From the NCBI GenBank assembly GCA_963704755.1, contig OY969938.1, positions 2,340,001 to 2,372,000 on the forward strand: DNA of 32,000 nucleotides, given 5' to 3'. Position 1 is the stretch's first letter, and each line of letters begins with the position of its first letter. A program made the translations under genes and the position numbers. Origin of the DNA: an uncultured Chloroflexia bacterium (GTDB lineage: Bacteria; Chloroflexota; Anaerolineae; Anaerolineales; Anaerolineaceae). Positions 10,097-30,264 of this stretch are shown here, piece by piece. The notes under the pieces were generated by a model. That model had not been told where the DNA came from. It was given only the letters and a program-made list of their open reading frames with translations, and made no database searches.

Positions 10097-10099
10097 AGG

Positions 10100-10897: not shown

Positions 10898-10909
10898 TAA
10901 AATTTCTCC

Positions 10910-12648: not shown

Positions 12649-12678
12649 GAGATGCCCGGTTTATTGGCTGGGCATCTC
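12649..12678 (-). terminator. Terminator candidate after the YgeW-like carbamoyltransferase gene
   Basis: GAGATGCCC...GGGCATCTC forms a 9-bp stem. On the minus strand it is followed by GATAGAATTTTTGG. Confidence 0.5.
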
Positions 12679-14916: not shown

Positions 14917-15690
14917 TTACTCCAAGGAAGTTTTCTGCAACTGCCCGGAGCGGATCTCCAGGATTTCATTGCGCACCTGCTGGATGTGGGCCTGCATGGC
15001 ATCCGCCGCGGCTCCCGCATCGTGCGCTTCCAATGCCGCCAGGATGGCGCGGTGCTCGCCGGCCATCTTCACTGCCCGCCGGCCCAGGTACAGCATGGCC
15101 TGGTTGCTTTCACCAAAGGCCGGGATGAGGTGGCTGATGATTTCGTGGGCAATGTCATTGCCGCTCGAAGCGCTCACCGCCAGGTGAAACTGTGCGTCCA
15201 GCCTGGCCAGCGCTGCGAACCCGGAAGCCGGGTCTCCATCCAACTGCGGGTTGAGGCTATCCTGCCGGTCCAGGATGGCGCGCAGCTCATCCAGGGCAGC
15301 CGGGGTAATCACTTTCGCCGCCAACGACGCGGCCAGCATCTCAATCGATTCACGTACCTCGATGACCTGCTCGAGGGTCTCTTCACGCTCGGCCAGCCAA
15401 TGCAGCAGCTCTCCCTTACGGTCCTCTCGTACAGGCCGCGCAGAGATGAATGCTCCGGAGCCGCGGCGGATCTCGATCTGCCCCTCGGCTTCCAACACCC
15501 GCAGGGCTTCGCGGACCGAAGAGCGGCTGACGCCCAACTGGCGAGACAGCTCCTGTTCGGGGGGTAGTTTCTCGCCCACCGCCAGCGTGCCACTCGAGAT
15601 AAGTTCGCGAATTTGCTCAACCGCCTGTTCGAAAATCCGAACCGGGGCCAGTCTTTGCAGTTTTTGGATAGTTTCGCTGGATGAATCCAT
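14917..15690 (-). CDS. GntR-family transcriptional regulator, FadR subfamily (FCD effector domain)
   Basis: 257 aa with the winged-HTH pattern GEKLPPEQELSRQLGVSRSSVREALRVLEAEGQIEIRRGSGAFI, followed by an all-helical C-terminal domain. Confidence 0.85.
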   Translation of the reverse strand: MDSSSETIQKLQRLAPVRIFEQAVEQIRELISSGTLAVGEKLPPEQELSRQLGVSRSSVREALRVLEAEGQIEIRRGSGAFISARPVREDRKGELLHWLAEREETLEQVIEVRESIEMLAASLAAKVITPAALDELRAILDRQDSLNPQLDGDPASGFAALARLDAQFHLAVSASSGNDIAHEIISHLIPAFGESNQAMLYLGRRAVKMAGEHRAILAALEAHDAGAAADAMQAHIQQVRNEILEIRSGQLQKTSLE

Positions 15691-15795: not shown

Positions 15796-16587
15796 TTACA
15801 TCCGGCTCGGATCGGTATAATCTCGGTTGACGTCCTTGTAGAGCAGGTAAGCCGACTTATCCCAACCGGTAGCGTAAAAGAACTGCGGGCAGAAAGGCGC
15901 CATATAGATAAAGTCATCCTTGCGGGTTTCGAGGAAATCGCCGTTCAGCCAATATACGCCGCGCCCGGCCAGCATATAGAGACCGTGCTCCATGATATGC
16001 GTCTCGACGTCGGAGAAATAGACACCCGGGTCGAAGACCTGCAGGTTGATGCCCATATCGAAGGCCAGGTCCTCGTAGGGGGTCAGGTGCTGCTCCATGT
16101 AGGTGTCGACCGGGTTGGCCACCACCTCAGATTCGTGGGACACAATCGGCTCAGGGATGGCAATCCCCTGCGTCTCGACGTAGCGCCGGCGGATCCACAC
16201 CAGGCGGGCATCCGCAGCGGTCGAATTCGTCATCTGGAACGGCCGCGAAGGTGGCAGCCAGCAGAAGCTGCCGCGCTCAAAAGTGTGCTTTTTTCCATCC
16301 AGCTCGAACTGCAAACCACCGTCCAAGACATATAAGAAATGTTCCCAGGATTTGTTCAAAGGCCGGGAAGTACCCCCGCCGGGCTGAACGACCAGCTCAT
16401 ACTGCACGAAACGCGCGCCAAGCTGCGGGGTCGCCAGCACCTGGGCCGCCGTATCCTTAAACCCAGGCAGGTAGCTGAACACCCGGTTAGACACCGGCAG
16501 GAGCGCATATATCCCCGGCTTGTTGATAGCCCGGCAGCGGGAGGTGATATCCGCATCATCGACGACCAGCATTTTTTCTTGTTTCAT
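15796..16587 (-). CDS. allE: (S)-ureidoglycine aminohydrolase (bicupin, AllE/YlbA type)
   Basis: 263 aa. IRRRYVETQG and ETHIMEHGLYMLAGRGVYWLNGDF...YIYMAP match my memory of E. coli AllE ([30 protein letters not shown]). GGAGAAG RBS is present. Confidence 0.75.
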   Translation of the reverse strand: MKQEKMLVVDDADITSRCRAINKPGIYALLPVSNRVFSYLPGFKDTAAQVLATPQLGARFVQYELVVQPGGGTSRPLNKSWEHFLYVLDGGLQFELDGKKHTFERGSFCWLPPSRPFQMTNSTAADARLVWIRRRYVETQGIAIPEPIVSHESEVVANPVDTYMEQHLTPYEDLAFDMGINLQVFDPGVYFSDVETHIMEHGLYMLAGRGVYWLNGDFLETRKDDFIYMAPFCPQFFYATGWDKSAYLLYKDVNRDYTDPSRM

Positions 16588-16632: not shown

Positions 16633-18006
16633 TCAGAACCGGTAGGGATAGCTGCGCTTCAACAGCCGTCCAAAGCCGGGCTGGACTTTGATCTCGCTAT
16701 CCTGGTACACGGTGACACCCCGTACCAGAGTGCGCTCCACCTGCCCCTTGAAAGTGCAGCCCACGTAAGCGCTGTGCTTGTTCTTGTACAGCAGTTGATT
16801 CACAGAGAGCGCCCACTCTTTCTCCAGGTCAACCACCACCAGGTCGGCGTCCGCCCCGGGCAGGATGTCGCCCTTCTGTGGGTACAGCCCAAAGAGACGG
16901 GCCGGGTTGGCCGAAAGCAGCCGCACCAGCGTGGTCAGCGCAACGCCGCGCTCGTGGTAACCGGCAGTGAGCAACGCCGGCAGCATCTGTTGAATGCCGG
17001 AAATCCCGCCCCAGGCCTTCCAGATATCGTCCATGCCGGGGGCTTTCTCTTCCCAGGTGCAAGGGGAATGGTCCGAACCGATCGTGTCCACCAGGCCCGC
17101 CTTGACGCAGTCCCACATGTCCTCGACCGTCTCGCGCGAGCGGATCGGCGGTGCACACTTGGCGGCCGGGCCGATGCGCTCGAAATCCTGGTGATCGAAG
17201 AACAGGTAGTGCGGGCAGGTCTCAGCGGTCACGTGCACGCCGTCCGCCTTGTATTCCGCCACCGTCTCCAGCCCTTCCGGGATAGAGACATGCACAATGT
17301 GCAGGTTGCCGCAGGTCACGCCTGCCCAGTAGCAGGCGCGCCGCACCGCTTCGAGCTCCGCTTCCGGCGGGCGCGATTCGTACCAGCTCGCCCGGTCGGT
17401 GCGCCCTGCGGCGCGTAACTGCCTGCCCAGGTAGGCGGTGACGTCCTCGTTCTCGGCGTGCAGCCCGATCAGGTTACCGAGATCACCCGTCTTCAGCAAG
17501 CCGGCATAAATCAGGTCGTCCTTCAAACGCTCGAAATCCACACCGCTGTTGCTCATGAAGGCTTTGAAGCCGATCACGCCCTCGGCATTCATCCCGTCCA
17601 GCTCGTCCAGGTTGTTATCCACCAGGCCGCCCCATTGGGCGTAGTCCACCACCGCCTCCGAGCGCACAACCTCGCGTTTGGTGGCGAGCAGATCCTTGGT
17701 GATGGTGGGCGGGGTGGCATTGAGCGGCATCTCCAGCACACTGGTCACGCCCCCCGCCGCGGCGGCCATACTGCCGGTGCGGTAGCCTTCCCATTGGTCG
17801 CGGCCCGGCTGGTTGAAGTGCGCATGACCGTCCACGATCCCCGGCAGGAGCAGCTTTCCACCCAGGTCGACGACTTCGCGAGCATCCACCTGGATATCGT
17901 TTGACATTATTTCAGCAATCTTGCCATCCTGGACGACCACGCCGCCCGGGAAAACCGCCGATTCGGTCACGACCAATGCGTTTTTGAGATAAAGATCTGC
18001 GCTCAT
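16633..18006 (-). CDS. allB: Allantoinase (cyclic amidohydrolase, AllB type)
   Basis: 457 aa with DGHAHFNQPGRDQWEGYRTGSMAAAAGGVTSVLEMPLN, GFKAFM, GLHAEN, HIVHVS, GSDHSPC and KAWGGISGIQ. These closely parallel remembered E. coli AllB motifs (EPGRSHWEGYETG..GGITTMIEMPLN; KAWGGIAGLQ). Confidence 0.8.
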   Translation of the reverse strand: MSADLYLKNALVVTESAVFPGGVVVQDGKIAEIMSNDIQVDAREVVDLGGKLLLPGIVDGHAHFNQPGRDQWEGYRTGSMAAAAGGVTSVLEMPLNATPPTITKDLLATKREVVRSEAVVDYAQWGGLVDNNLDELDGMNAEGVIGFKAFMSNSGVDFERLKDDLIYAGLLKTGDLGNLIGLHAENEDVTAYLGRQLRAAGRTDRASWYESRPPEAELEAVRRACYWAGVTCGNLHIVHVSIPEGLETVAEYKADGVHVTAETCPHYLFFDHQDFERIGPAAKCAPPIRSRETVEDMWDCVKAGLVDTIGSDHSPCTWEEKAPGMDDIWKAWGGISGIQQMLPALLTAGYHERGVALTTLVRLLSANPARLFGLYPQKGDILPGADADLVVVDLEKEWALSVNQLLYKNKHSAYVGCTFKGQVERTLVRGVTVYQDSEIKVQPGFGRLLKRSYPYRF

Positions 18007-18029
18007 ACCTGGGCCTTCTAAGAAAAGTT

Positions 18030-18096
18030 GTACCTGCTCAACCGGACGGGCAAAAAAAAAACCTGGGGCTTTTTACCCGACGCCTGAGCAGGTACG
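18030..18096. repeat. Family copy D: outer inverted repeats only (GTACCTGCTCA / TGAGCAGGTAC), enclosing an A10 tract
   Basis: The 11-bp perfect inverted repeat resembles the outer repeats of copies E and F (GTAACTACTCA / TGAGTAGTTAC). It lies between the arcC stop and the allB start. Confidence 0.55.
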
Positions 18097-18106
18097 AAAA
18101 GTCGAT

Positions 18107-19054
18107 TTATGGCACGATCCAGGTGCCCGTCTCGCCGATTAACGCACGGGAGATGTTTTCCGGGTTGGTAATGAGAGCCTGCTTGCCACCGGCTTCCATA
18201 AAGCGCAGGATGGCCTGGACCTTGGGCAGCATGGAACCCTTGGCGAAGTGGCCCTCCGCCATGTACTGGCGAGCCTCAGCCACCGTCATGCGGTCCAGCC
18301 ATTTTTGGTCAGGCTTATTGAAGTTGATGGCCACCTTTTCGACCGCGGTGGAGATGACGAACAGGTCGGCATGGATCAGGTTGGCCAGCACCGAGGAACC
18401 GAAATCCTTGTCGATGACTGCCTCGACCCCGGTTAGGTCGCCGTTCTCCAGCTCGACCACCGGGATGCCGCCGCCGCCCACACCCACCACAGTAAACCCA
18501 CCCTGGATCAGGCATTGGATGGCCGGCGCTTCCACGATTTTGATCGGGATGGGAGAGGCCACCACTCGCCGCCAGCCGCGGCCGGCATCTTCTACCACTA
18601 CCCAGCCATCTTCCGACTGGCGCTTCCTGGCCTCGGCCTCGCTCATGAACGAGCCAATCGGCTTGGTCGGGTTCTGGAAGGCCTTGTCGCTGCGGTCTAC
18701 GATGGTCTGGGTGACCACCGCCGCGACCGGCTTCTGGATCCCGCGCAGGCGGAACTCGTTGTTCAAAGCCTGCTCGAACATGTAACCAATCGAGCCCTGG
18801 CTGTCTGCACCGCAGTAATCCAGGGGCACTTCATGCAGCTCTTTCTGCGAGAGCTCTGAGCGGCGCAGGATGAACCCGACCTGCGGACCGTTGCCATGCG
18901 TCACGACCACGTCCCAACCCTGCTGGATCATGTCCGCGATGTGGTGCATCGATTCGCACGCCGCCGCATACTGGTCCCTGATCGTCTTGTGCTGTCCATC
19001 TTTGATCAACGAATTGCCGCCGACGGCAACTACTGCTACACCTTTACTGGTCAT
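18107..19054 (-). CDS. arcC: Carbamate kinase
   Basis: Begins MTSKGVAVVAVGGNSL...VVTHGNGPQVG, with ...GGGIPV... later. ATG 19054 (AAAGGA 10 nt upstream) is preferred over the track's TTG at 19063. Confidence 0.85.
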   Translation of the reverse strand: MTSKGVAVVAVGGNSLIKDGQHKTIRDQYAAACESMHHIADMIQQGWDVVVTHGNGPQVGFILRRSELSQKELHEVPLDYCGADSQGSIGYMFEQALNNEFRLRGIQKPVAAVVTQTIVDRSDKAFQNPTKPIGSFMSEAEARKRQSEDGWVVVEDAGRGWRRVVASPIPIKIVEAPAIQCLIQGGFTVVGVGGGGIPVVELENGDLTGVEAVIDKDFGSSVLANLIHADLFVISTAVEKVAINFNKPDQKWLDRMTVAEARQYMAEGHFAKGSMLPKVQAILRFMEAGGKQALITNPENISRALIGETGTWIVP

Positions 19055-19098
19055 TCTGATCAATCCTTTAATGGTTTAGTTTGAGCCGGGCGCGGCGA

Positions 19099-20101
19099 TC
19101 AGACGCCCAGAATACTGGCGACCAGCGCCATGCGAATGGATACCGAATAAGCGATCGCCTCGAAATAGAGCTGGTGAGGGGTGTTGTCGATGCGTAGGTC
19201 CATCTCGCCGGCCCGGCGCGGCAGGGTATGGGTGATGTAAATCGTGCGGTTCTCGTCCTCGTGCACCTTCTTGAGGGTGTCGTAGCGCACATAGTAGTTA
19301 TCCATCACCTTCTTGAAGGCCTCCGCCTCAGGACCTTTCGGCGCGCTGCAGCCGGGCAGATAGACCATGTCCATACCCGCGACCAGCTCGTTGAAGCTAT
19401 CCTGGGTCAGGTCGAACTCCTCAGTGACGTTATCGCCGAAGCGGGATAGTATTTCCATTACCTCGGCCGGCGTGCGGCGCGACTTCTGCGTCGCCAGGGT
19501 CACTTTGGCGCCTAGACGGGCCAGCCCCTGGGCCATCGAATGCCCGGTGCGGGCCTCGACCAGGTCAGCGCTGGCCACGCACACCTTCAGGCCTTCGATC
19601 TTGCCGTAGGTACGATAGAGTGTGTACAGGTCGAGCAGGGCCTGGGTCGGGTGCTCCCAGTGGCCCCAGCCGGCGTTGATGACAGAAGCTTCCGAGCAGG
19701 GTACGGCTTCGCGCACTTCCACGTCGTTCGGGTGGCGAATCACAATCAGGTTGGCGTACTTCGAGACCACCCGCAGCATGTCCGCCAGGCTCTCCTCTTT
19801 GGCCGCCGAGGAGGTGACCATCGGATTGGCTTCACTGATCACCGCACCGCCCAGGCGCTGCATGGCGGTCTCGAAGCTCATGCGCGTGCGGGTGCTGGGC
19901 TGGAAGAAGAGGGTGGACATGACGTTGCCGGTCACGAGCTCGATGCGCGAGCGGTTCCAGGGTTCCAATAAGCGGCCAAGTTCGAACAGGGCGTAAATCT
20001 GTGCATCCGATAGATCATTGATCGAGTGCAGGCTGTGGCCTTCAAAATCGATTTCACGGACGATAGATCGGATCGATTTTAATTTTGCTTGCGTTTTCCA
20101 T
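19099..20101 (-). CDS. ATCase-fold carbamoyltransferase paralogue; ATG and first ~9 codons are out of frame with the body (1 extra nt near 20070-20085)
   Basis: The body carries FFQPSTRTRMSFE (STRTR), HWEHPTQALLD (HPxQ) and ITHTLPRR (HxLP). The frame stays open and family-like upstream of the track's TTG 19968 (..GHSLHSINDLSDAQIYALFELGRLLEP) but holds no ATG/GTG/TTG. An ATG at 20101 with AGGAGA 5 nt upstream lies in the adjacent frame and stops after 15 codons. The span is 1003 nt, i.e. 3n+1. Confidence 0.75.
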
Positions 20102-20159: not shown

Positions 20160-21680
20160 TCAGCCCTTGCAGGCGCCGTTGACCCAGCGGTTCATGCCCA
20201 CGTCGCGCGCCGCGGCGCGCAGGTACATCTCACGGTAATAGGGCTCGAGCTGGCTGGCGGCGGCAGCGTTCTTGTCCAACTCCAGCTTGTAGGACTGCAT
20301 CAATTCGCGCGCCTCAGCTTTGATCGCCTCTTCATCGACGGTCAGGATGCGCCCGTCCTCGACCACGACCTGGCCGGCGACCATGGTCATGCGCACCGAG
20401 CTGCCGTTTTCGCAGTACACCAACTGGCGGTAGATATCGTTCAGCGGGGTAAATGCCAGGGTGTTCAGGTCCAGCAGGATCAGGTCGGCCTCATAACCCG
20501 GGGCAAGCACGCCCACCCGGCCCTCGTTGCGCATGGCGTGCGCTCCCCCGCGGGTCAGCGCCCAGAGGATCTCCGGTGCTTTGGGCCAGATGCGATAATC
20601 CGGGTTCGTGATGGAATGGATCAGGCCGGCCACCTTGCCGACCCCCCACATATTGGCCGTATCGTCGGTGCAGCCCTCGTCACTGCCCATGCAGAGCGGG
20701 ATGCCATGATCGCGCATGCGGCGCCAGGTCATCACCCCGCTGCCCAGGCGCAGGTTGCAGAGTGGGTTATGGGCGATCGAGCAGCCGGCCTCGGCGATCA
20801 GGTCCACGTCCTCGTCGTCCACCCAGATGGCATGGATGATCATCATGCGCTCGTCGAGCAACCCCAGGTCATGCACGTACTTGACCAGCGACTTGCCGTA
20901 TTTCTCCTCGCCCAAGACCCGTTGGAGCTTGGTCTCGAGAATGTGCACGTCGAAGGGCAGGTCGTACTGCTTGCTGAGGTCGGAAAGCGCCGCGAAGTAA
21001 TCGACTGTGACGCGTTGCGGAGCCGAAACGGACACGGCCGCGCAGACCCGTCCTTCATAGGACTTGTGCCACTTCGTGAGCAGGTACTTGTAACAATCCA
21101 GCAGCTCGTCCTTTTTGTTGAGCGGCGCCACTTCCATCTGCTTGCGTAAATTTTCGGGCAGGATCTCTTTGAGGAAGGGGTATTTATCGTATTCGACCAC
21201 GTTGGGCTGGTCGATGGTCGCCGCCACACGGATGCCGCTGTCGGCGTAGGATTGCATCAGGCCATCGATCGCGTCCGGGGTGGGATAGGGGACATAAAAC
21301 GCGTCGTCATGCACGGCGGTGACACCCAGTTTGAGCATTTCGATGTTGCTCAGCATGGTCCGCACGTAGTTCAGGCGGTAATCCGGCGGGTTTTCGCTGA
21401 GCGGGGGCACCTCGTACAGCATGAAAATTTCCAGGGGCAGGTTATCCAGGGCGCCTTTGCTGAAATTTCCGGGTGAGTGGATGTGTCCGTTGACCAGGCC
21501 GGGCATGGCCAGCTTGCCGGAGGCGTCGATGACCCGCAGCGCTTCCCCGCTTTCCGGAACCGGAATGTCTTTACCGACCGCCACGATCCGGGTACCCTGG
21601 ACGAGGATATCCCCACACTCGATCTCGGTCATCTGGTCATCCATGGTCAGGATGCGTGCATTTTTTATCAAGGTTGCCAT
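20160..21680 (-). CDS. Amidohydrolase-superfamily deaminase/hydrolase (TRZ/ATZ, SsnA, cytosine- or guanine-deaminase-like)
   Basis: 506 aa with PGLVNGHIHSP (HxH), FDVHILET (HxxE), IIHAIW and MGSDEG. GGAG RBS is present. Substrate cannot be assigned from sequence alone. Confidence 0.75.
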   Translation of the reverse strand: MATLIKNARILTMDDQMTEIECGDILVQGTRIVAVGKDIPVPESGEALRVIDASGKLAMPGLVNGHIHSPGNFSKGALDNLPLEIFMLYEVPPLSENPPDYRLNYVRTMLSNIEMLKLGVTAVHDDAFYVPYPTPDAIDGLMQSYADSGIRVAATIDQPNVVEYDKYPFLKEILPENLRKQMEVAPLNKKDELLDCYKYLLTKWHKSYEGRVCAAVSVSAPQRVTVDYFAALSDLSKQYDLPFDVHILETKLQRVLGEEKYGKSLVKYVHDLGLLDERMMIIHAIWVDDEDVDLIAEAGCSIAHNPLCNLRLGSGVMTWRRMRDHGIPLCMGSDEGCTDDTANMWGVGKVAGLIHSITNPDYRIWPKAPEILWALTRGGAHAMRNEGRVGVLAPGYEADLILLDLNTLAFTPLNDIYRQLVYCENGSSVRMTMVAGQVVVEDGRILTVDEEAIKAEARELMQSYKLELDKNAAAASQLEPYYREMYLRAAARDVGMNRWVNGACKG

Positions 21681-21708
21681 TATTAATCTCCAATAATCGA
21701 GCAGCTAC

Positions 21709-22455
21709 TCAATCGCGGTACGGCCGGCTAAAAATTGGGAGCAGGCCGGGCAGCTCGACCCGTTTTGGCTGCAGGTAAGCTCGTTTTTTGCTGGTGTGCA
21801 GGCCGTAACTGCCGAGGCCTTCCATCAGTTTCAGGGCAGCCACGACACCATCCACCACCGGCACGCCCAGCTCGGCTTCCAGTTGCTTGTCCATGCCGGA
21901 CATGCCCGCACAGCCCAGGCAAATCACTTCGGCGCCATCCTTCTCGATGGCATCTTGCGAAGATTTGAGGATGACCTGGTAGGTCTCCGTGGGGCTGAGG
22001 GCTTCCAGCGCCAGCACGGGAAGGCGGGTGGAGCGCACGGAGGCGCAGCGATCGGCCACCCCAAAATGGCGGACCGCGTCCCACAGCAGCGGCTCCCAGG
22101 CCTCATCGGTGGTCACAATGCTGAACTTGTGGCCCACCATGCAGGCGAAATACACGGACGCTTCGCAAATGCCAATCGCCGGCTTATCCGAAATTTCACG
22201 CAGCGCGTAGACCGTGGGGTGGTCGCTGACGCAGGCGATCACGAAGGCATCGTACTTGTCCATCTGGCTGATCGCCAGTTCCAGGGTAGGGGTGGCGCTC
22301 ATCAATTCGTCGTAGATGCACTCGATCGAGCGCGGCCCGGCGCTTGGATTGCAGGCTAGCGCCTGCGTCGCCGGCGCGGCATATCGATCGATCGTCTCCT
22401 GCAGCCGGCGGGTGAATTCTTCTGTAGTGTTGGGGTTGATAAAGAGGATACGCAT
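21709..22455 (-). CDS. Asp/Glu/hydantoin racemase-family protein (hydantoin or allantoin racemase-like)
   Basis: 248 aa beginning MRILFINPNTT, with two Cys-containing segments (AFVIACVSDH; VICLGCAGMSG) as expected for two-base racemases of this family. Confidence 0.75.
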   Translation of the reverse strand: MRILFINPNTTEEFTRRLQETIDRYAAPATQALACNPSAGPRSIECIYDELMSATPTLELAISQMDKYDAFVIACVSDHPTVYALREISDKPAIGICEASVYFACMVGHKFSIVTTDEAWEPLLWDAVRHFGVADRCASVRSTRLPVLALEALSPTETYQVILKSSQDAIEKDGAEVICLGCAGMSGMDKQLEAELGVPVVDGVVAALKLMEGLGSYGLHTSKKRAYLQPKRVELPGLLPIFSRPYRD

Positions 22456-22497
22456 AACTTTTTCCTGTTCGTCAGGCTGCGAATGAAGCGCCTGTTC

Positions 22498-23277
22498 TCA
22501 AATTCCGAACTCTTTCTCGATGACCCGTACAATCCCTTCGGTGACCGCATCCAGAATGCGCTCGCCCTTTTCTTTGCTGGCGCGGGTAGCCTTCCAGAAG
22601 ACGCCAGATTCTGGCGCGCCATCCTTTGGAGTGGGCAACACGTCGTAATCGAAGGGCTGGGGCGGCCTGCCGTCCACGATGAGATCCTCATGTACCAGCT
22701 CCGGATAGGCTGCCAGCATGGCGGAGGTTTCCCAGATCGCGGCATGCTCTACTGCCCAGCCGGGGAAATCCGCGCCAAACAGGTCTTCCATCAGGCCCGG
22801 CTGGGTGCTGACGCCCAGGCCGTTGGGGTTGTCGATCTTGACGATCTTCAGGTCGTCCCCACAGCCGCAGGCGCGCACGGCTTCGTCCACCCCTTCGAAC
22901 ACGAAGGGCACGTTTTCCAGGTGCCAGTCCAGGACGACGATGCGCCGCCAACCCTGCTGGATGAACTGGCCGACGATCTCTGACACCATGCTGATGACCG
23001 TCGCGCCTTTCAGGCCGATGCTGCCGGGAAAATACGGTCCCCCGCCGGCGCGCAGGAGCGATTTATAGCCATATGTGCAGCCCGGGGCGACCACACCGTT
23101 CACCCGCCTGGCAACCCGCTCGGCAATCGCCAGGGGCAGGTAAAAGTCCACCCCGGTGGGCAGGTGCGGTCCGTGCTGCTCGACGGACCCAACCACAAAC
23201 AGCAGCACGCGTTGATCGATTGCGGCCTGCTTCAATTCAGGCCAGGTCATTTTCAGCCATAAGACATTTGACGGCAT
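22498..23277 (-). CDS. Creatininase-family metal amidohydrolase (creatinine amidohydrolase / formamide hydrolase-like)
   Basis: Carries VGSVEQHGPHLPTGVD.., a family signature. ATG 23277 (GGGAG 8 nt upstream) is preferred. The track's TTG 23301 would overlap the upstream stop as TTGA. Confidence 0.75.
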   Translation of the reverse strand: MPSNVLWLKMTWPELKQAAIDQRVLLFVVGSVEQHGPHLPTGVDFYLPLAIAERVARRVNGVVAPGCTYGYKSLLRAGGGPYFPGSIGLKGATVISMVSEIVGQFIQQGWRRIVVLDWHLENVPFVFEGVDEAVRACGCGDDLKIVKIDNPNGLGVSTQPGLMEDLFGADFPGWAVEHAAIWETSAMLAAYPELVHEDLIVDGRPPQPFDYDVLPTPKDGAPESGVFWKATRASKEKGERILDAVTEGIVRVIEKEFGI

Positions 23278-23297
23278 CGAATTGCTCCCTTGTTCTT

Positions 23298-24674
23298 TCA
23301 ATCAAGCCGGGCGAAAACTGGGTTCGGATCCCGGCGAATAAATTTTCCATCTCCCGGCCGGCCGAGCACCCTGCCCCGCTCGGCGGCAATCTGTCCGCGC
23401 AGGATGGTGTAGAGCACCCGCCCTGCCAGCGTTTTGCCCTCATACGGGATCCAGCCGCATGAGGTATTCATCTCCGCAGCGTGGAGTGTATGGCTTTCGG
23501 AAAGGCTTACCACGGTGAAATCCGCATCCGCCCCGACCTGGATCGCGCCTTTGCGCGGGTACAGCCCGTAGATTTGGGCGGGCATTTCAGCCGTCAGTGC
23601 CGCCAGGCGGGCCAGCGAGATCCAGCCCTTTGCCGCAGCGTTGAGCATCAACGGAATGAAGGTTTCCGCTTCCGGGATGCCAATATGGACCTTCAAAATG
23701 TCGGCCTCATCGGCCTTTTTCAACTGCGGGTCGATCGGGCCGGGGTCGGAGCCCATCAGGTCGATACTGCCCTGTGCGAGCTGCTGCCAGAGCGCGTCCA
23801 CGCGCTGCCGGTCATGGATAGGCGGGGCGTAGACCACCCAGGGCCCCTGAGCTTGCAGGTCGGAGTGGTCCAGGTACAAGTTGTGCGGGCAGGTCTCCAC
23901 CCAGACGTCCACTCCCTCCCGGCGCGCCTGGTGAACCATCGCTACGCCTTCGGGAATGGTGGTGTGTAGAATGACGGCGCGCGCGCCGGTTCCGCGCAGA
24001 AGGAAAAGCGCGCGGTGGATCGCTTCCGCTTCGGCTTCCGGCGTGTGCCATTCGACAAACGCCATGGGGTCTGTACGCCGGGCAGCGGCCAGCCGGCGGT
24101 AATTGGCGCGCAGCATGGCCTCGTTCTCGGCGTGCAGCATCACCGTCCCGCCGAAGCTGCCAATCTTGCGGAAGGCGGCGAGCAACTGGCCGTCGTCCAG
24201 GCCGTTGACCCTGGTCCCCGATTCGCACATGAAAATCTTGAAGGCCGTGGCGCCGGCTTCCCACAGCGCCGGGAGCTGGTCCAGGTTCTGATCGCTCACC
24301 CCGGCGTGCAGGGCGAAATCGGTGTAGGCGGTCGCTTCTCCCAGGACCCGTTTTTGCTCAAAAACGTTTACATCCAAAACCTCGGGCGGGCTAAGCGGTT
24401 GGTCGATGATGGTGGTGACCCCACCCGCAAGCGACGCGCGTGTGCCATCTTTAAAGTCCGGGCCGGCCAGCATACCCGGCTCCCACAGGTGCTGGTGCGG
24501 GTCGATGCAGCCCGGCAGGATGTGACAGCCGGCGAGCGAAAGCCGCTCTCGGGCAGGGCGGCCGGCCAGGCTGCCGGCAATGCTGGCGATTTTCCCATCC
24601 CTGACACCGATATCTGCCCGGTACTCGCCGCGCGGGATGACCACGATCCCATCCTGAAGAATCAGATCGAACAT
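23298..24674 (-). CDS. Cyclic amidohydrolase (dihydroorotase/hydantoinase/dihydropyrimidinase-like), second copy in the cluster
   Basis: 458 aa. All metal-ligand positions look present: CIDPHQH (HxH), AFKIFM (Lys), MLHAEN, VILHTT, GSDPGP (Asp). Confidence 0.75.
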   Translation of the reverse strand: MFDLILQDGIVVIPRGEYRADIGVRDGKIASIAGSLAGRPARERLSLAGCHILPGCIDPHQHLWEPGMLAGPDFKDGTRASLAGGVTTIIDQPLSPPEVLDVNVFEQKRVLGEATAYTDFALHAGVSDQNLDQLPALWEAGATAFKIFMCESGTRVNGLDDGQLLAAFRKIGSFGGTVMLHAENEAMLRANYRRLAAARRTDPMAFVEWHTPEAEAEAIHRALFLLRGTGARAVILHTTIPEGVAMVHQARREGVDVWVETCPHNLYLDHSDLQAQGPWVVYAPPIHDRQRVDALWQQLAQGSIDLMGSDPGPIDPQLKKADEADILKVHIGIPEAETFIPLMLNAAAKGWISLARLAALTAEMPAQIYGLYPRKGAIQVGADADFTVVSLSESHTLHAAEMNTSCGWIPYEGKTLAGRVLYTILRGQIAAERGRVLGRPGDGKFIRRDPNPVFARLD

Positions 24675-24748: not shown

Positions 24749-25687
24749 TCAACCGCCGCTGGTCTGGACCTGGGCCTCCAATGCGCCCAACCGCTCCCGG
24801 GCTTTGGAAGCCGGGATGGTGAACATGTGATTCAGCCCAAAATCCTGGACGGCGAACGAAGCCGAGACCGCCCCCGCCAGGCCGGCCCGTACCAGGTCTC
24901 CGCTGCGCACGTACATGGCCATAAAACCGCCGCAGAAGGTATCGCCTGCGCCGGTCGTATCCAGGGTGTTCGCCGGGTAGATCGGAATCCTGTGAAAGCT
25001 ATCCAGGCGCGCATCGTAGATCAGGCAGCCTTCCTGGCCCAGCTTGATGACCACCGCGCTGGGACCGTATCCGGCGAACTGGCGGCAGGCCTTTGCAAAA
25101 TCGCGGTGGCCGAGCAGCAGGAAGACTTCCTCCTGGCTGGGCATAAAAATATCGACGTGTTTGAGCAGGTCCAGGATGCGCTGCTCGTTACCGGGGATAT
25201 ACTCTTCCTGCGGGTCGAGGGCGAGTGTGCCGCGCTCCCGCAGCGCCGGCGCGAGGGCTTCCTGCGCAGCCAGGTCCATGGCCAGCACCAGGAAAGCGCG
25301 CGCAGCGAGATAATCTTCCGGGATATCGGACATCCGTGGAGAGAGCTCGAAGAAATCGCCGCCATTGCTCAACATGACCCAGGTGCGCTGGTTGTTGTTG
25401 GCGTAGGTCACCCGGTAATGGACCCCAGGGATCGAGCGCCGGGGCAGGCCGCGCGTTTCCAGACTGGAGCGGTTGAGACTGGCGAGGTTTTCCTCGGGGT
25501 AATCCGCGCCGACCGGGGCCACAAAGCGCACCGAATCAGACCACCAATGCGCACCCAGGGTGGCGTAGATGGTATCTCCCCCGAAACAATTCAAGCAAGT
25601 CGTTCCATCCGGGAGGACCACGTCGTCGATGGAAAGATTACCGAGGCAAACTAGGTCAAATGGCATAATCAACAGGCTCCGATCCAA
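24749..25687 (-). CDS. PfkB-family (ribokinase-like) sugar/nucleoside kinase
   Basis: N-terminus reads FDLVCLGNLSIDDV, and the C-terminal anion-hole motif DTTGAGDTFCGGF is present. The start is either TTG 25687 or, perhaps more likely, ATG 25666 (GGAG upstream). Confidence 0.8.
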   Translation of the reverse strand: MDRSLLIMPFDLVCLGNLSIDDVVLPDGTTCLNCFGGDTIYATLGAHWWSDSVRFVAPVGADYPEENLASLNRSSLETRGLPRRSIPGVHYRVTYANNNQRTWVMLSNGGDFFELSPRMSDIPEDYLAARAFLVLAMDLAAQEALAPALRERGTLALDPQEEYIPGNEQRILDLLKHVDIFMPSQEEVFLLLGHRDFAKACRQFAGYGPSAVVIKLGQEGCLIYDARLDSFHRIPIYPANTLDTTGAGDTFCGGFMAMYVRSGDLVRAGLAGAVSASFAVQDFGLNHMFTIPASKARERLGALEAQVQTSGG

Positions 25688-25693: not shown

Positions 25694-26539
25694 TTATTCC
25701 AGCTTCATTTCATCCCGGGCGGCATCCTCGGGCTCTTCGTACCAGGGCATCGATTTCCCGACCAGGGAACGCAGCTTCCAGCCGGTCGTTTTTGGCGCTG
25801 CTGCCATACGCTCGCCCAGCTCGGCCAGCCTCGCGTTGACCACCTTCGCCTCCGGTTCCGGCACTTCCAGTATTTTCAACAGCTGGGGGATTTTCTCCAG
25901 GTTCGTGGTCACGGTGGTGTAAAAGCCCCAATCCTGGCTGGTGATTTCCAGGATGCGCCGCAGGTTGACCGTTTCCAGATCGGTATCCCCAAGCGGGTGC
26001 TCGATCAAAATAGCGGCGATATCTTTGACGTCTTTGGGGTTGATCGAGTGGATTTGCAGCTTGGTCAGGAGCAGCTCTGCCAGAGGGATGGTGCGCGGGT
26101 CCTGCTGCAGGCGGTCGCGGTTGAACTTGATGTCGTGGCACATGTGGAATTCATTGATGAAAATATCGATGTACCAATCTGCGGTCGAACTGTCGAAGAT
26201 CATGCGTTTCGCGCCCTGCAGGGCATTGAAGCGGGCATTTGCGGTGAAACCGATCGATTCGAAAAAGGTGCGCATGCGGCAGTCGTCCGGGGAGGCGGTC
26301 ACGAAATCCAGATCGCCATACGTGCGCGCCAGGCAGGGCAGAACCGAGGCGGTCGGACTGTGCATGTGAACGGCCATCCCACCGATCACGCGTAAAAGCA
26401 CTTTCTGTTCATCCGCTGCCTTCAGAATACGTTCACATTCCGCTCGCATGTTGACCATTGCTGCTCCATTCGTAGCTAACTCAGGGTAGACCAGCGCCCC
26501 ACCTGCGCCCAATGAACTCAAACTCAATTGCGAGGGCAT
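25694..26539 (-). CDS. Nucleotidyltransferase-fold protein of unknown function
   Basis: 281 aa. VIGGMAVHMH...YGDLDFV fits the G[GS]-x(n)-D-x-D pattern of the pol-beta NTase fold. The ATG overlaps the upstream stop as ATGA (26537-26541). The family call is tentative. Confidence 0.5.
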   Translation of the reverse strand: MPSQLSLSSLGAGGALVYPELATNGAAMVNMRAECERILKAADEQKVLLRVIGGMAVHMHSPTASVLPCLARTYGDLDFVTASPDDCRMRTFFESIGFTANARFNALQGAKRMIFDSSTADWYIDIFINEFHMCHDIKFNRDRLQQDPRTIPLAELLLTKLQIHSINPKDVKDIAAILIEHPLGDTDLETVNLRRILEITSQDWGFYTTVTTNLEKIPQLLKILEVPEPEAKVVNARLAELGERMAAAPKTTGWKLRSLVGKSMPWYEEPEDAARDEMKLE

Positions 26540-27498
26540 CAGCCCGAAACGCTTTGATAATTCACGTATTTCGCCTGCTTATCGACATTGAAGATCAAGA
26601 TAATCCCGCGTAAAACGCCCTGAGCGTATTCACTGCCGTGATTGAAGATCAGTGTATTGCCGATCTTGTCCTTGCCGGGGCATTCATGCACGTGCCCGTG
26701 GATGCCCACCAGGGGCTGGTACTTCTCGATGATGGTGCGTACGGCCTTGGAGCCCACGTTCTGGAAAGGGTCCCCATTGAAACCCGAGACCATGCGCATG
26801 TCTTTGGTCAGGTTCGGGGCGACGTCCAGCTTGGTGCCGTACGGCGGGGCGTGGAAAGAGAAGATGCATTTCTTGGGGTCTGGAACCAGCGCGACCAGCC
26901 CTTCCAGCTTCTCGAGCAGCTTATCCTCGGCCATCTCGCGAGGTGTGTCCCAGGGAGTGGGGTTGGTCCAGCCACAGGTGAGCATGTCGATCTTCTCGTG
27001 AACGGCCACGCACTGGTCTTCGGGGTTGATCACACCCGGACGGGACTGCATGACCGCATCTATGGCGAAGGGGTCATCGTTACCGGCGGAGATGTAATAC
27101 ACAGTGCCATCCTTGCGGTGTGATTCTTCCATGCGGTCCATCCAGGATGCCATGCGCTCGACGATCAGGCCGTCAACCAGTTGCTCGCTGCGGACGGGGT
27201 CGGCGTGCAGCGCAGCTACTTCATCCGCATCGGTGATGTAGGTATAGAAGCCAGAATTGTCGATCAATCCGATCATGTGCTTGAGATCGGCTTCGGTCTC
27301 CAGGGTGCGTTGTTCGCCGCCAAATTCGCAGGTATAACCTGAGCCGGATTTCAGGATGGGGACCATCCCCTTACCGACCAGGTCGCCCGCCATGATCACC
27401 GCGTTCACGCCGTAAAATTTGCCGGCCTTCAATGCCTTTCCAAAGGTGAGCTCAGAGCCATGCAAGTCGCCGGTAAAGTAACCTTTCCAAAAAGCCAT
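26539..27498 (-). CDS. Calcineurin-like metallophosphoesterase
   Basis: Start at ATG 27498 (MAFWKGYFTGDLHGSE), with GGAG upstream. Motifs GDLHG, MAGDLVGKG, SAGNDD, FHAPP and GHVHE are present. The track's 414-aa version adds a non-protein-like extension overlapping the permease 3' end. Confidence 0.8.
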   Translation of the reverse strand: MAFWKGYFTGDLHGSELTFGKALKAGKFYGVNAVIMAGDLVGKGMVPILKSGSGYTCEFGGEQRTLETEADLKHMIGLIDNSGFYTYITDADEVAALHADPVRSEQLVDGLIVERMASWMDRMEESHRKDGTVYYISAGNDDPFAIDAVMQSRPGVINPEDQCVAVHEKIDMLTCGWTNPTPWDTPREMAEDKLLEKLEGLVALVPDPKKCIFSFHAPPYGTKLDVAPNLTKDMRMVSGFNGDPFQNVGSKAVRTIIEKYQPLVGIHGHVHECPGKDKIGNTLIFNHGSEYAQGVLRGIILIFNVDKQAKYVNYQSVSG

Positions 27499-27622: not shown

Positions 27623-29251
27623 CTATTCCGGCGGGATCTCTTTGTAGGCCAGGTCGACGTTGATGCCCTTAGAATTCTGGTAAGCGCGGTAAGCGTAGAA
27701 GTAGATGACCGGTACGATGATCGTGACGGCCACCGCAACCAGCGAAAGGGTGGTGTTGGCGCCGAAGACCGGGTAGAAGCCAAAGTAGAAGCCCATCACA
27801 CCGATGAACAGGACCGAAATCACACCGGTAATCGCGACCAGCGGGATCCCAAAGACCTTGCGGGCGCTCGTCTGGCTCTGCCAAAGCTTTGGAAATTTGA
27901 ACGGGAAAACGATGGCTGCCACGGACAGCACCATGTAACCGAAAATCTGCGCCATCATCGAGCTGAGCAGCGAGGCGGATTGCCACACCAGGATCACCAC
28001 GATGGCGATCAGGCCCATAATTACCGTGAAGATAATGGCCTTGACCGGGGTGTGGGTCTTTTCGCTGACTTCACCCATGGCTTCCGGAGCCATGCGGTCG
28101 AAGGAGTAAGCCAGCATGCTGCGGGTGATGAAGGCGATGATGTTCGGGGTGCCGTTGGTAGCCCACAGGATGTAGGCCAATCCGAGTAATGCCGCTATGG
28201 GGGTGGAACGGGCGATCACGTTGACCATGAAGTTAAAATCAGGTGTCACCGCGAGACCAGAGACGCCCCCGTTGAAATACAGGTAACCCAGGGAGTTCAA
28301 GAACTCGAGGCCGATGAACTTTTGCACCAGGATGGCCAGCAGGGCAACGATACCGCCATTGGCCAGGGTAGCGGTCACCATGGCAGTGAACTGGGTCGAG
28401 CGGGCTTTCTTGACCTCGCCGCCGATCTGCGGGGAGCCGTTGAAGTAACCCACAATCCAGAAGGCCATCGGCATCAGGGCCAGGGTGGCGCCCAGGTTGA
28501 AGGGGGAATTGGGATTGAAACCGGCCGCCTTGGCCGCGTCGATCACGCCCTGGTAAGATGGGGCACCCATGCCGGCGACGATTGCATTCCAGTTGGCCTG
28601 GAAATTACTGCCGCCAAAGAGCAAGACCAGGATGGAGACCAGCACCGACAAGACACAAATGGAGACGGTGATCTTCATGTACAGGAAGTAGTTCTTGATG
28701 CCACTGATGTGCAGCCAGGCAAACAAGATCTGAAGGACAATCGCCACGGTTACCACGAACCAGGTATTGGTTACCTGCCCGGCCCATGTGATGAGGGTCT
28801 GGCTGTGGGTAAGGGTGCCCAAGAGTTGCAGCGTACCGGGGAGGGCAAAATTCACCATCGCCCAGGCGTTAAACGCCATCCAGAAGAAGTTCCAGATGAC
28901 CTGCTGCCCGCTCAGGATGAAACCCCAGACCGGGCCCAGGACGCGGGAGGTAAATACGTAATCCGCGCCTGAACGGGGAAATGCGCCAGCAGCGATCGAG
29001 TAGTTATACGCAGTTGACAGGGCTACAAAAAGTGTGCAAATGACAACTGCCCACAGGATGCTTGCGCCGGGAAGCTGGGCCCCCCACAGGAATAATAACG
29101 CAACACCCACGCCGATGTTCATCCCGGAGCTGTTCAGGACGATGGCATCCAATACGGATACATCTCGGACCAGGCCGGTAGCTTTCCGGAGGAACATGGC
29201 TTCAGCTTCTGGCTTTGGGGGTGCTTTGACTCTTGACGCTGCTTGGGTCAT
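27623..29251 (-). CDS. APC-superfamily amino acid/polyamine-type permease
   Basis: 542 aa with about 12 hydrophobic segments. AAGGAG lies 7 nt upstream of the ATG. Confidence 0.8.
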   Translation of the reverse strand: MTQAASRVKAPPKPEAEAMFLRKATGLVRDVSVLDAIVLNSSGMNIGVGVALLFLWGAQLPGASILWAVVICTLFVALSTAYNYSIAAGAFPRSGADYVFTSRVLGPVWGFILSGQQVIWNFFWMAFNAWAMVNFALPGTLQLLGTLTHSQTLITWAGQVTNTWFVVTVAIVLQILFAWLHISGIKNYFLYMKITVSICVLSVLVSILVLLFGGSNFQANWNAIVAGMGAPSYQGVIDAAKAAGFNPNSPFNLGATLALMPMAFWIVGYFNGSPQIGGEVKKARSTQFTAMVTATLANGGIVALLAILVQKFIGLEFLNSLGYLYFNGGVSGLAVTPDFNFMVNVIARSTPIAALLGLAYILWATNGTPNIIAFITRSMLAYSFDRMAPEAMGEVSEKTHTPVKAIIFTVIMGLIAIVVILVWQSASLLSSMMAQIFGYMVLSVAAIVFPFKFPKLWQSQTSARKVFGIPLVAITGVISVLFIGVMGFYFGFYPVFGANTTLSLVAVAVTIIVPVIYFYAYRAYQNSKGINVDLAYKEIPPE

Positions 29252-30173: not shown

Positions 30174-30202
30174 TTGACAAGCGGATTGGCAAACACTATA
30201 AT
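30174..30202 (+). promoter_or_regulatory. Consensus sigma70-type promoter directed toward the btpA-like gene
   Basis: TTGACA (30174-30179), a 17-nt spacer, then TATAAT (30197-30202). An exact match to both hexamers with optimal spacing. Confidence 0.7.
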
Positions 30203-30206
30203 CACG

Positions 30207-30222
30207 TTACCTTATACGGTTA
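30207..30222. promoter_or_regulatory. Imperfect 16-bp palindrome between the two -10 boxes; candidate GntR/HutC operator
   Basis: TTACCTTATACGGTTA has 12 of 16 positions self-complementary (T-ACC-TATA-GGT-A). It covers the predicted start sites of both promoters. Confidence 0.35.
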
Positions 30223-30235
30223 TCATGACAAGTTC

Positions 30236-30264
30236 ATTTTAGCAAGGTGAACACAAATTGTCAA
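30236..30264 (-). promoter_or_regulatory. Near-consensus sigma70-type promoter directed toward the HutC-type gntR gene and the catabolic cluster
   Basis: On the minus strand: TTGACA (30264..30259), a 17-nt spacer, then TAAAAT (30241..30236). Confidence 0.65.

Follow-up and report, generated by a model that had tools for sequence, protein, structure and literature searches.

The four genes and the array around them

We examined a 32,000-nucleotide stretch of DNA (the window) from an uncultured Chloroflexia bacterium of the family Anaerolineaceae (assembly GCA_963704755.1, contig OY969938.1, positions 2,340,001 to 2,372,000), concentrating on four minus-strand genes at 20160-24674 and on the candidate ureide fermentation of which they may form part. 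An initial annotation had described these genes as a tightly spaced ring-opening module, and the open reading frames (ORFs), the families named and the spacing are as stated there: in the order of transcription, a cyclic amidohydrolase, a creatininase-clade metal hydrolase, a racemase and a TRZ/ATZ-type amidohydrolase, all co-directional and separated by 20, 42 and 28 nucleotides (nt). The transcarbamoylase and carbamate kinase (CK) said to follow directly are also in place, the former (TC1) 58 nt after the TRZ/ATZ gene and the latter after a further 35 nt. The four genes form the middle of a single-strand, co-directional array of about 22 kb with gaps of -4 to 190 nt, which additionally holds an allantoinase, an (S)-ureidoglycine aminohydrolase, a GntR/FCD regulator, a protein resembling ketol-acid reductoisomerase (KARI) and a second transcarbamoylase (TC2), none of which was on the earlier list. 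All ORFs of at least 240 amino acids (aa) between 7.8 and 30.2 kb were assigned, and other long ORFs and fragments of the window were scanned as well.

The first of the four genes, hydL458 (23298-24674; 458 aa), encodes a hydantoinase/allantoinase-like member of PF01979, in whose translation the HxH, carboxylated-lysine (AFKIF), His, His and Asp motifs of the binuclear type can be read. Its top match in the PDB is the ATP-independent L-hydantoinase 1gkr (1e-81), with allantoinases next, and on the allantoinase model TIGR03178 it scores 334.6, under the cut-off of 357.85. We rejected hydL458 as an allantoinase, given this score and the better paralogue about 5 kb away at 16633-18006 (508.7 on the same model), to which it is 35% identical.

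The adjacent creatininase homologue (22498-23277) comprises 259 aa from the ATG at 23277, or 267 aa from an alternative TTG start at 23301. In an independent contig the gene is called from the ATG, and the ATG form and the racemase are both on database record; an exact database look-up of the TTG form returned no match. The protein belongs to PF02633 (9.4e-52), exceeds the cut-off of TIGR04448 (263.1 vs 235) and is 40% identical to the creatininase of Pseudomonas putida. In P. putida numbering, the metal ligands E34, H36, D45, H120 and E122 and the catalytic H178 are all kept; across 108 homologues they are invariant, save for D45, which is found in 107. The residues contacting creatinine in the P. 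putida enzyme, which following the crystallographic literature we take to be Y121, W154, D155, W174 and S78, are replaced here with the sole exception of W174: Y121 has become L, W154 P, D155 N and S78 A (A or S across the clade), and in the same pocket G119 is W, Y153 is N and D175 is A. These changes are clade-wide, with L in 89, P in 89, N in 86 and W119 in 105 of the 108 homologues, the Pseudomonas pattern being retained in two archaeal matches alone (41% identity). Because the catalytic residues are kept and the pocket is consistently altered, we read the protein as a putative lactam or cyclic-amidine hydrolase of the creatininase clade, whose substrate may be creatinine or a relative of it.

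The third gene (21709-22455; 248 aa) encodes an Asp/Glu/hydantoin racemase (PF01177, 5.6e-59) that matches no NCBIfam model. Its top PDB matches are, over the full length, allantoin racemases (5lfd, 1.3e-44; Klebsiella HpxA 3qvj, 2.2e-39), and its cysteine motifs VIAC(V/F) and (C)LGC(A/G)GM align with those of HpxA, so that it can be called allantoin-racemase-like. The last gene, TRZ506 (20160-21680; 506 aa; PF01979, 3e-37), displays the motifs GHIH, HILE, IHAIW and GSDEG, which we take, by the general pattern of the amidohydrolase superfamily, to be the HxH, HxxE, His and Asp motifs of deaminases, and it is a probable deaminase or deiminase. Members of the 8-oxoguanine deaminases are among its best PDB matches (about 1e-40). 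It reaches none of the NCBIfam equivalog cut-offs (5'-deoxyadenosine deaminase 233.9 vs 522, 8-oxoguanine deaminase 198.2 vs 532, SsnA 164.8 vs 444, guanine deaminase 105 vs 375, HutF 103 vs 362), and the assignments as SsnA, guanine deaminase or 8-oxoguanine deaminase were discarded for scores that lie far below these thresholds.

Downstream of the four genes, TC1 (19099-20101; PF02729 and PF00185) is an aspartate transcarbamoylase (ATCase)-like protein carrying the motifs STRT, HPTQ, ARTGHS, LPGCS and HTLP. With respect to its nearest solved relative, the Pyrococcus abyssi ATCase (3e-58), STRT, HPTQ and the arginine of GRTVHS are retained, whereas GCS stands in place of the aspartate-binding RxQ and HTLP in place of HPLP. 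HPTQ, HTLPRR and ARTGHS are invariant in all 120 close homologues, and STRT is found in 119 of them. These two substitutions, together with a score below the TIGR00670 cut-off (211.1 vs 236.95), indicate that TC1 is not an ATCase, and on the same motif and score tests it was rejected as the housekeeping PyrB. Proteins of this kind have been defined as "pseudo-ATCases" by Barba et al. 2013, with a subgroup 1 (ureidoglycine carbamoyltransferase, UGTCase) marked by HPLA and AIA/AIS/SIA and an uncharacterized subgroup 2 marked by H[ST]LP and GX[SC], the latter reported from Nocardioides (JS614 type) only, beside a YgeW-like transcarbamoylase, xdhABC and hyuA (PMC4016543). TC1 matches the pattern of subgroup 2 (STRT, HPTQ, HTLP, GCS) and has TC2 about 5 kb away in the same array, which places it in that subgroup. 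An exhaustive search over 1.84 billion representatives found the PG[CS]x plus H[STP]LP signature in only about seven full-length clusters, the next relatives being ordinary ATCases at 39% identity or less. The gene context described for UGTCases, an adjacent CK and allantoinase (PMC4016543), is likewise present.

CK itself (18107-19063; TIGR00746 386.4 vs 358.25, PRK12352 419 vs 266) is followed after 100 nt by the allantoinase. TC2 (12698-13752), delimited by tblastn with the intact 350-aa orthologue of a related locus (L002), resembles acetylornithine and ornithine transcarbamoylases (AOTCase/OTCase): it has the motifs SLRT, HPCQ and HCLP, and its top PDB match is the AOTCase 3kzc (6e-57), with OTCases next and YgeW 3q98 further off (8e-29). 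We consider it a candidate oxamate transcarbamoylase (OXTCase).

Both transcarbamoylase genes are frameshifted in this assembly. The TC1 frame is broken by one extra A (AAAA at 20077-20080, against AAA in L001, an independent short-read contig that is about 100% identical); in L001 the N-terminal 159 residues run uninterrupted to the contig end behind an AGGAGA ribosome-binding site, and intact homologues of 333 aa are common. The TC2 frame shifts at a GG run (12934-12935), its halves aligning at 73% and 72% with the L002 orthologue in two frames. This suggests homopolymer errors of the long-read assembly in both cases, for TC2 by inference only. A reading of the two genes as pseudogenes was not accepted, since the indel of TC1 lies in an A-run and is missing from the near-identical contig, and that of TC2 lies in a G-run. 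Such indels would make automated gene calls truncate both proteins, and the product on record for this contig has only 289 aa.

Between CK and TC2 lie the allantoinase, whose orthologues in related loci are 61 to 73% identical, a bicupin of the (S)-ureidoglycine aminohydrolase type (15796-16587; TIGR03214 257 vs 200) with a readable ExHxxxH...Q metal motif, the GntR/FCD regulator (14917-15690; PF00392 and PF07729) and the KARI-like oxidoreductase (13879-14871; PF07991 and PF01450, TIGR00465 292 vs 226, PDB KARIs at 1e-90), a candidate ureidoglycolate dehydrogenase. The array closes with a redox block: FixC (11203-12507), FixX (10910-11206), ETF-beta (10100-10897), ETF-alpha (9125-10096) and a DAO-family flavoenzyme (7899-9104), all with NCBIfam and Pfam matches, so that the DAO/ETF module of the initial annotation is real (7899-12507). 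Top PDB matches of the DAO-family protein are dimethylglycine dehydrogenase (4pab, 4e-31) and SoxB-like proteins. The 190-nt gap between TC2 and FixC contains the only strong terminator-like structures in the array, hairpins at 12559-12605 (20-bp perfect stem) and 12649-12678 (13 bp), which suggests that FixC to DAO may be a transcription unit of their own.

Conserved gene order in related loci

To place the four genes in a comparative context, 37 related loci were retrieved and each window protein was compared with them by tblastn; 14 loci came from a contig scan with TC1 and nine from a metagenome scan with the creatininase homologue. Statements on co-occurrence are based on about 25 independent loci, carry no statistic and cover flanks of about 10 kb per side, the span to which gene absences in relatives apply. 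Relatives of TC1, of the creatininase homologue and of TRZ506 are overwhelmingly from metagenome-assembled genomes (MAGs) of Anaerolineae and other Chloroflexota.

The results of this comparison revealed a conserved core, TC1-(CK)-allantoinase-cupin-KARI-TC2-FixC-FixX-ETF-DAO, at 60 to 80% identity in about ten Anaerolineae-type MAGs (L002-5, L013-16, L018-20); relatives of Bellilinea and Brevefilum are among the carriers. In most core loci, orthologues of the creatininase and of hydL458 are absent from the flanking 10 kb or so. A cupin homologue (40-66%) lies within about 3 kb of TC1 in all loci with adequate two-sided flank, L038 excepted; the KARI-like gene sits between cupin and TC2 in L002, L005, L015, L016, L019 and L020; and FixCX/ETF/DAO are kept with the core in L002/L013, L015, L016 and L018-20. 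A racemase orthologue (60-66%) and a large ABC transporter usually precede the core. Racemase orthologues (60-68%) adjoin TC1 or the allantoinase in L002-5, L013, L015, L020 and L037, as an allantoin racemase would, also in loci without creatininase in the sampled flanks. The transporter (L002 1-9054; L037 3841-14918) has a binding protein of 780 to 803 aa with Liv-type (Peripla_BP_5/6) and ribose-type (Peripla_BP_4/1) domains and two permease/ATPase sets.

For TRZ506, orthologues (68-82%) accompany the ureide core or the ABC transporter of the core in three loci (L019, L037, L038) and adjoin creatininase in three others (L009, L027, L028). In L019 the orthologue lies upstream of TC1-CK-allantoinase-cupin-KARI-TC2, and in L038 about 9 kb from TC1 and CK. 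In L037, an Ardenticatenaceae MAG, it sits in a core-type ABC transporter operon, between permease genes and between orthologues of the racemase (68%) and the allantoinase (62%), with no creatininase and no transcarbamoylase within 10 kb. The racemase is thus a component of the core and the TRZ/ATZ enzyme a frequent associate of it, linked more to the core than to creatininase. Its linkage to racemase, allantoinase and transporter suggests that TRZ506 makes or processes a hydantoin or ureide near the allantoin stage.

hydL458 and the creatininase homologue have other companions. Their orthologues (54-62% for hydL458) adjoin each other in L007, L008, L009 and L036, the usual order being hydL-(SIS)-Amidohydro_2-Amidohydro_2-creatininase (L007, L008, L009, L028-30), and the pair is linked to the two Amidohydro_2 genes, BtpA, GntR/UTRA and the APC permease in L007, L008, L009, L028-30 and L036. 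In L007/L015 and L008, a block of BtpA, GntR/UTRA, APC permease, metallophosphoesterase, unknown protein and PfkB (56-81%) stands directly beside the creatininase set. The window and the near-identical L001 are unusual in having no Amidohydro_2 genes.

Since racemase and TRZ506 accompany the core and creatininase and hydL458 accompany the permease/kinase block, the four genes are not one conserved unit, as the initial annotation had proposed, and instead straddle the boundary of two. The two modules are repeatedly neighbours all the same: upstream block and core adjoin in at least five independent genomes or contigs (window, L007/L015, L009, L027/28, L034).

In the window, the upstream block consists of a PfkB kinase (24749-25687), an unknown protein of 281 aa (25694-26539), a metallophosphoesterase-like protein (26539-27483), a permease (27623-29251) that is of the APC type (PF13520), as first annotated, and a GntR/UTRA regulator (29341-30132), all on the minus strand and, apart from the unknown protein and the permease, assigned by family match; a BtpA family gene (30567-31358; family match) is divergent, on the plus strand. 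Two sigma-70-like promoters lie back to back at 30174-30264 (12/12 and 11/12 consensus matches), TTGACA-17-TATAAT on the plus strand facing BtpA, and TTGACA-17-TAAAAT with an extended -10 TG on the minus strand facing GntR/UTRA and the long array. No terminator or promoter is predicted in the window between the upstream block and the core, where gaps are 20 to 74 nt; a weak promoter-like site precedes the GntR/FCD gene at 15722-15695.

Several further features were seen at the margins of the two modules. Beside BtpA, the C-terminal part of a URO-D/MtaA-like protein (uroporphyrinogen decarboxylase family) occupies 31395-32000, the protein continuing past the window end. Positions 1-4100 have about 55% GC, no ORF above 201 aa and fragments without significant Pfam match, and may hold degraded or frameshifted genes or be genuinely non-coding. 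Long perfect or near-perfect hairpins with arms of 26 and 25 nt and loops of 3 nt occur at 7056-7110 and 5492-5544, in an AT-richer region upstream of the DAO gene, and Rfam and tRNA scans of the window gave no match. Among the relatives, a conserved triad absent from the window precedes TC1 or hydL in several genomes (L005 7312-9827, L007 about 17267-19739, L009 4437-6874, L016 7261-9766): a CK-like paralogue that does not reach the CK cut-offs, an uncharacterized protein (about 250 aa) and a response regulator of the OmpR type, which may form a sensing or regulatory unit. Downstream of TC2 in L005 (16643-21002), a racemase, a nitroreductase, a CodA-type amidohydrolase resembling cytosine/creatinine deaminases (254 bits vs 438), a GcvT-like protein and a CN_hydrolase look more like a classical creatinine/hydantoin-to-sarcosine branch than any gene set of the window does. 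In L007 (7288-10004) and L008 (7291-9993), as in most relatives, hydL and creatininase are separated by an SIS protein of about 395 aa that resembles FrlB and the C-terminal part of GlmS, and by two Amidohydro_2 proteins (about 250 aa each). Together with PfkB, APC permease and GntR/UTRA, this set recalls the layout of fructosamine (frl) operons at the superfamily level only; orthology of the kinase to FrlD and of the SIS protein to FrlB was rejected (41 and 40 bits vs cut-offs of 247 and 430).

A proposed ureide fermentation and its competitors

On balance, we favor a reading in which the heart of the array is an anaerobic fermentation of allantoin-type ureides that conserves energy via carbamoyl phosphate. 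The racemase would interconvert R- and S-allantoin and so give the allantoinase its right enantiomer, whose hydantoin ring would be opened to allantoate. TC1 would then phosphorolyze one ureido group of allantoate, yielding ureidoglycine and carbamoyl phosphate; the cupin would deaminate ureidoglycine to ureidoglycolate; and either the KARI-like enzyme or DAO/ETF/FixCX would oxidize the latter to oxalurate. TC2 would phosphorolyze oxalurate to oxamate and a further carbamoyl phosphate, and CK would convert each carbamoyl phosphate to ATP, NH3 and CO2. Anaerobic allantoin degradation classically ends in this way, with phosphorolysis of oxalurate and CK (PMC11326118). The creatininase homologue and hydL458 would act as an accessory pair that feeds further cyclic amidines or (imino)hydantoins, as N-carbamoyl compounds, into the core, most plausibly widening its substrate range.

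This reading draws on the three independent allantoin signals (allantoinase, ureidoglycine aminohydrolase and racemase) that stand beside TC1 and CK, on the recurrence of the core order in about ten MAGs, mostly without the accessory pair, on the non-ATCase motifs of TC1, on the fit of a transcarbamoylase pair to a diureide substrate, on the company that TRZ506 keeps with core genes and the accessory pair with the permease block, and on an array that is co-directional, with a consensus promoter ahead of GntR/UTRA and strong hairpins only after TC2. Because relatives without creatininase in their sampled loci also keep TC1, TC2 and DAO/ETF, the primary substrates of these enzymes are probably intermediates of the allantoin-type core. 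Gene content, family membership, synteny and motif classes are established here; the substrate assignments, the roles of TC1, TC2, the KARI-like and the DAO-family enzymes, and any passage of accessory-enzyme products to the transcarbamoylases are what we infer from them.

A number of observations weigh against the scheme. TC1 carries HTLP and GCS and not the HPLA and AIA of subgroup 1, no HPLA/AIA protein occurs among the 82 near-full-length (285-365 aa) members of its 150 closest representatives (sequences clustered at 50% identity), and we therefore rejected TC1 as an orthologue of the proven UGTCase; its proposed role on allantoate would follow from gene context, not orthology. The sole identified OXTCase, AllFGH, has a fold unrelated to that of TC2 (PMC11326118). 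The annotated window genes include no FdrA-, YlbE- or YlbF-like ORF (AllFGH), and any OXTCase role of TC2 would be non-orthologous to that enzyme. The KARI-like protein scores as a genuine IlvC, and a simple allantoin scheme leaves DAO/ETF without an explained role. Neither a source of allantoin nor a dedicated allantoin transporter is visible in the window; PfkB, SIS, BtpA and the metallophosphoesterase hint at a phosphorylated or sugar-linked substrate of which the scheme makes no use; and TRZ506, the creatininase homologue and hydL458 have no assigned substrates in it. Finally, the initial annotation had found no N-carbamoyl amidohydrolase, and a domain scan of the window ORFs agrees, with neither a nitrilase-type (CN_hydrolase) nor an M20 carbamoylase encoded. 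This absence is lineage-specific: an M20 ArgE/YgeY-like deacylase (TIGR01910 269 vs 218) lies inside the core of three relatives, at 11266-12513 in the allantoinase position of L016 (Brevefilum) and between allantoinase and cupin in L019 (about 13625) and L020 (about 12467), and in these one decarbamoylation may be hydrolytic.

Several other explanations were weighed. The first, an extension of the favored scheme that we hold to be rather unlikely in its entirety, joins the two modules: both ureido groups of allantoate would be phosphorolyzed, subgroup 2 would be an independently evolved second allantoate/ureidoglycine carbamoyltransferase, TC2 a classical-fold OXTCase, and the accessory enzymes would extend the pathway to creatinine-type 2-amino-imidazolones or guanidino-lactams. 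If true, N-heterocycles of urine and soil would be fermented without oxygen and with a yield of ATP, and creatinine would have an anaerobic route that dispenses with both the ATP-dependent N-methylhydantoinase and the carbamoylsarcosine amidase. An action of the core on 2,3-diureidopropionate in place of allantoate was considered as a further alternative.

The route from creatinine to sarcosine, raised in the initial annotation, now appears improbable. TRZ506 would deaminate creatinine to 1-methylhydantoin, hydL458 would open this without ATP to N-carbamoylsarcosine, transcarbamoylase and CK would release sarcosine and ATP, and DAO/ETF would oxidize the sarcosine; the creatininase would interconvert creatine and creatinine, and the same logic would lead from glycocyamidine via hydantoin and hydantoate to glycine. 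Such a route gives each of the three accessory enzymes a chemically sensible step, and it agrees with the above-threshold TIGR04448 score and intact catalytic residues of the creatininase homologue, with the presence of the three enzymes together in at least four genomes, often abutting TC1 and CK, and with the ETF-linked dimethylglycine dehydrogenase and SoxB-type proteins as nearest solved relatives of the DAO-family enzyme. Creatinine and allantoin, moreover, occur together in urine and wastewater. However, four of the five presumed creatinine contacts (Y121, W154, D155, S78) are changed; TC1, TC2, CK and DAO/ETF persist in relatives whose sampled loci have no creatininase or hydL458, as does TRZ506 without creatininase in L019, L037 and L038; and nearly all other loci place two Amidohydro_2 genes (with or without SIS) before creatininase, for which the route has no use. 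1-Methylhydantoin is achiral, which leaves the racemase without a role, and no transcarbamoylase is known to act on an N-methylated (secondary-amine) carbamoyl compound. Known creatinine deaminases are CodA-type enzymes and do not belong to the TRZ506 subfamily. Of the enzymes of the known creatinine-deaminase route, the window has none: domains of a CodA-type creatinine deaminase, of the HyuA/HyuB ATP-dependent N-methylhydantoinase and of an isochorismatase-type carbamoylsarcosine amidase do not occur in its ORFs.

Equally, the two modules might have no metabolic link at all, creatininase and hydL458 forming, with Amidohydro_2, SIS, PfkB, BtpA and the APC permease, a separate pathway for phosphorylated or sugar-linked lactams that merely lies beside the ureide core; we give this little credence. 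It would accord with the two regulators of the window (GntR/UTRA upstream, GntR/FCD in the core), with a creatininase homologue (45%) in L035 that is surrounded by a GH35 glycosidase, an APC permease, a metallophosphoesterase-like protein, a LacI-type regulator and a transketolase, with the position of the creatininase block several kb from the core in L008 and the lack of any core gene on the sampled contig of L036, and with the membership of the sugar-ring hydrolase IolN in the creatininase family. Against it stand the adjacency of the blocks in at least five independent genomes or contigs and, in the window, the short gaps between them with no predicted terminator or promoter.

More doubtful still is a route in which the creatininase homologue would open a cyclic guanidine lactam to a guanidino acid (such as creatine or guanidinoacetate) that TRZ506 would deiminate to the ureido compound, with TC1 and CK yielding ATP. 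The arginine and agmatine deiminase pathways follow a similar logic, and TRZ506 would play a part like that of HutF on amidines. Creatininase and TRZ506 are direct neighbors in L009, L027 and L028, L019 and L038 link TRZ506 with TC1 and CK, and TRZ506 has a weak likeness to formimidoylglutamate deiminases and keeps the HxxE deaminase motif. On the other hand, no TRZ/ATZ enzyme is known to deiminate an acyclic guanidino acid, L037 has TRZ506 with racemase and allantoinase and no transcarbamoylase within 10 kb, and hydL458 would be superfluous.

Least probable, in our view, is that the accessory enzymes (TRZ506 as deiminase, the creatininase homologue as 2-iminohydantoin ring hydrolase, hydL458 as second hydantoinase) turn 5-guanidinohydantoin and iminoallantoin, products of guanine oxidation, or 5-substituted 2-iminohydantoins into allantoin or allantoate: such substrates are chiral at C5 and give the racemase a role, 8-oxoguanine deaminases are among the best solved relatives of TRZ506, which is linked to racemase and allantoinase orthologues, the changes in the creatininase pocket hint at a substituted ring of the creatinine kind, and a review speculates on cyclic-urea enzymes adapting to guanidinohydantoins (PMC12623156), yet the argument is one of chemical analogy alone, the substrates are not known to be abundant in the environment and form oxidatively, whereas the organisms here are presumably anaerobic, and PfkB, SIS and Amidohydro_2 are left without a role.

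Significance and relation to known systems

Few fermenters of digesters, sediments and soils are as abundant as the Anaerolineae, and few are so little cultivated. If the favored allantoin-type scheme is true, up to two carbamoyl phosphates per ureide molecule would define an energy and nitrogen niche for them. The cluster supplies candidate proteins on which the function of pseudo-ATCase subgroup 2 and the existence of a classical-fold OXTCase can be examined, and the accessory hydrolases with their clade-specific pocket mark an uncharacterized substrate class, which may comprise creatinine-like rings, major urinary nitrogen compounds. No description of this Anaerolineae cluster was found in the searchable literature.

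The proposal of the initial annotation that transcarbamoylase and CK take over the carbamoylase step fits the gene context, and phosphorolytic decarbamoylation is likely here, but the principle is already established and not new. Phosphorolysis of ureido compounds has been described for oxalurate in Streptococcus allantoicus and Escherichia coli by OXTCase (PMC11326118), for allantoate in Rubrobacter by UGTCase in 2013 (PMC4016543) and for 2,3-diureidopropionate by YgeW of the reductive uric-acid pathway in 2025 (bioRxiv 10.1101/2025.05.19.654654).

Of these systems, that of Rubrobacter xylanophilus, whose Rxyl_2847 is a UGTCase of pseudo-ATCase subgroup 1 (Barba et al. 2013, PMC4016543), is matched in the proposed phosphorolysis of allantoate in place of an allantoate amidohydrolase. 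It differs in the motifs of the transcarbamoylase (HPLA and AIA, against HTLP and GCS in TC1), and the Anaerolineae cluster lacks the uricase, HIU hydrolase and OHCU decarboxylase of Rubrobacter, to which it adds the cupin, the KARI-like enzyme, a second transcarbamoylase and FixCX/ETF/DAO. The oxamate branch of E. coli and S. allantoicus (AllB, AllC, AllE, AllD, AllFGH, AllK; PMC11326118, PMC9843812) offers like chemistry, from allantoinase via ureidoglycine aminohydrolase and oxalurate to oxamate, carbamoyl phosphate and, through a catabolic CK, ATP. In the window, TC1 would replace the missing M20 enzyme AllC, the KARI-like enzyme or DAO/ETF the missing AllD (Ldh_2), and the classical-fold TC2 the missing AllFGH. 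The reductive uric-acid (2,8-dioxopurine) pathway, with SsnA, HyuA, YgeW, YgeY, YgeX and YqeA (bioRxiv 10.1101/2025.05.19.654654; PMC12990295), likewise brings a hydrolase of the TRZ/ATZ superfamily, a hydantoinase, CK and a catabolic transcarbamoylase to bear on a diureide. Here, by comparison, TRZ506 is not SsnA (165 vs 444), TC2 is nearer to AOTCase than to YgeW (6e-57 vs 8e-29), XdhD, YgfK, YgeX and YgeY are absent from the window, and cupin and allantoinase point to allantoate instead of 2,3-diureidopropionate.

Likeness to the remaining pathways is looser. With creatinine catabolism the window shares a creatininase-clade enzyme (40% identity, catalytic residues intact) and, nearby, amidohydrolases of the deaminase and hydantoinase types; it has no creatinase in addition to the missing deaminase, N-methylhydantoinase and amidase, the pocket residues differ, and the creatininase homologue is usually partnered by two Amidohydro_2 proteins. 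As in classical hydantoin utilization, one operon contains both a hydantoinase-like enzyme and a racemase that belongs to the hydantoin-racemase family, but no carbamoylase goes with them in the window, and the racemase groups with allantoin racemases and belongs by synteny to the allantoinase core. The arginine and agmatine deiminase pathways act on other substrates, and a deiminase of the guanidino-group-modifying superfamily is missing from the window, which has two transcarbamoylases of different subfamilies; what is shared is the mode of energy conservation, phosphorolysis of a ureido group by a catabolic transcarbamoylase and CK. Taken together, the new elements are the subgroup-2 pseudo-ATCase clade paired with an AOTCase-like enzyme, the KARI-like and FixCX/ETF/DAO redox partners and the accessory ring hydrolases. 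The principle will not surprise a specialist, and the value of the cluster lies in the variant and its enzymes and not in the concept.

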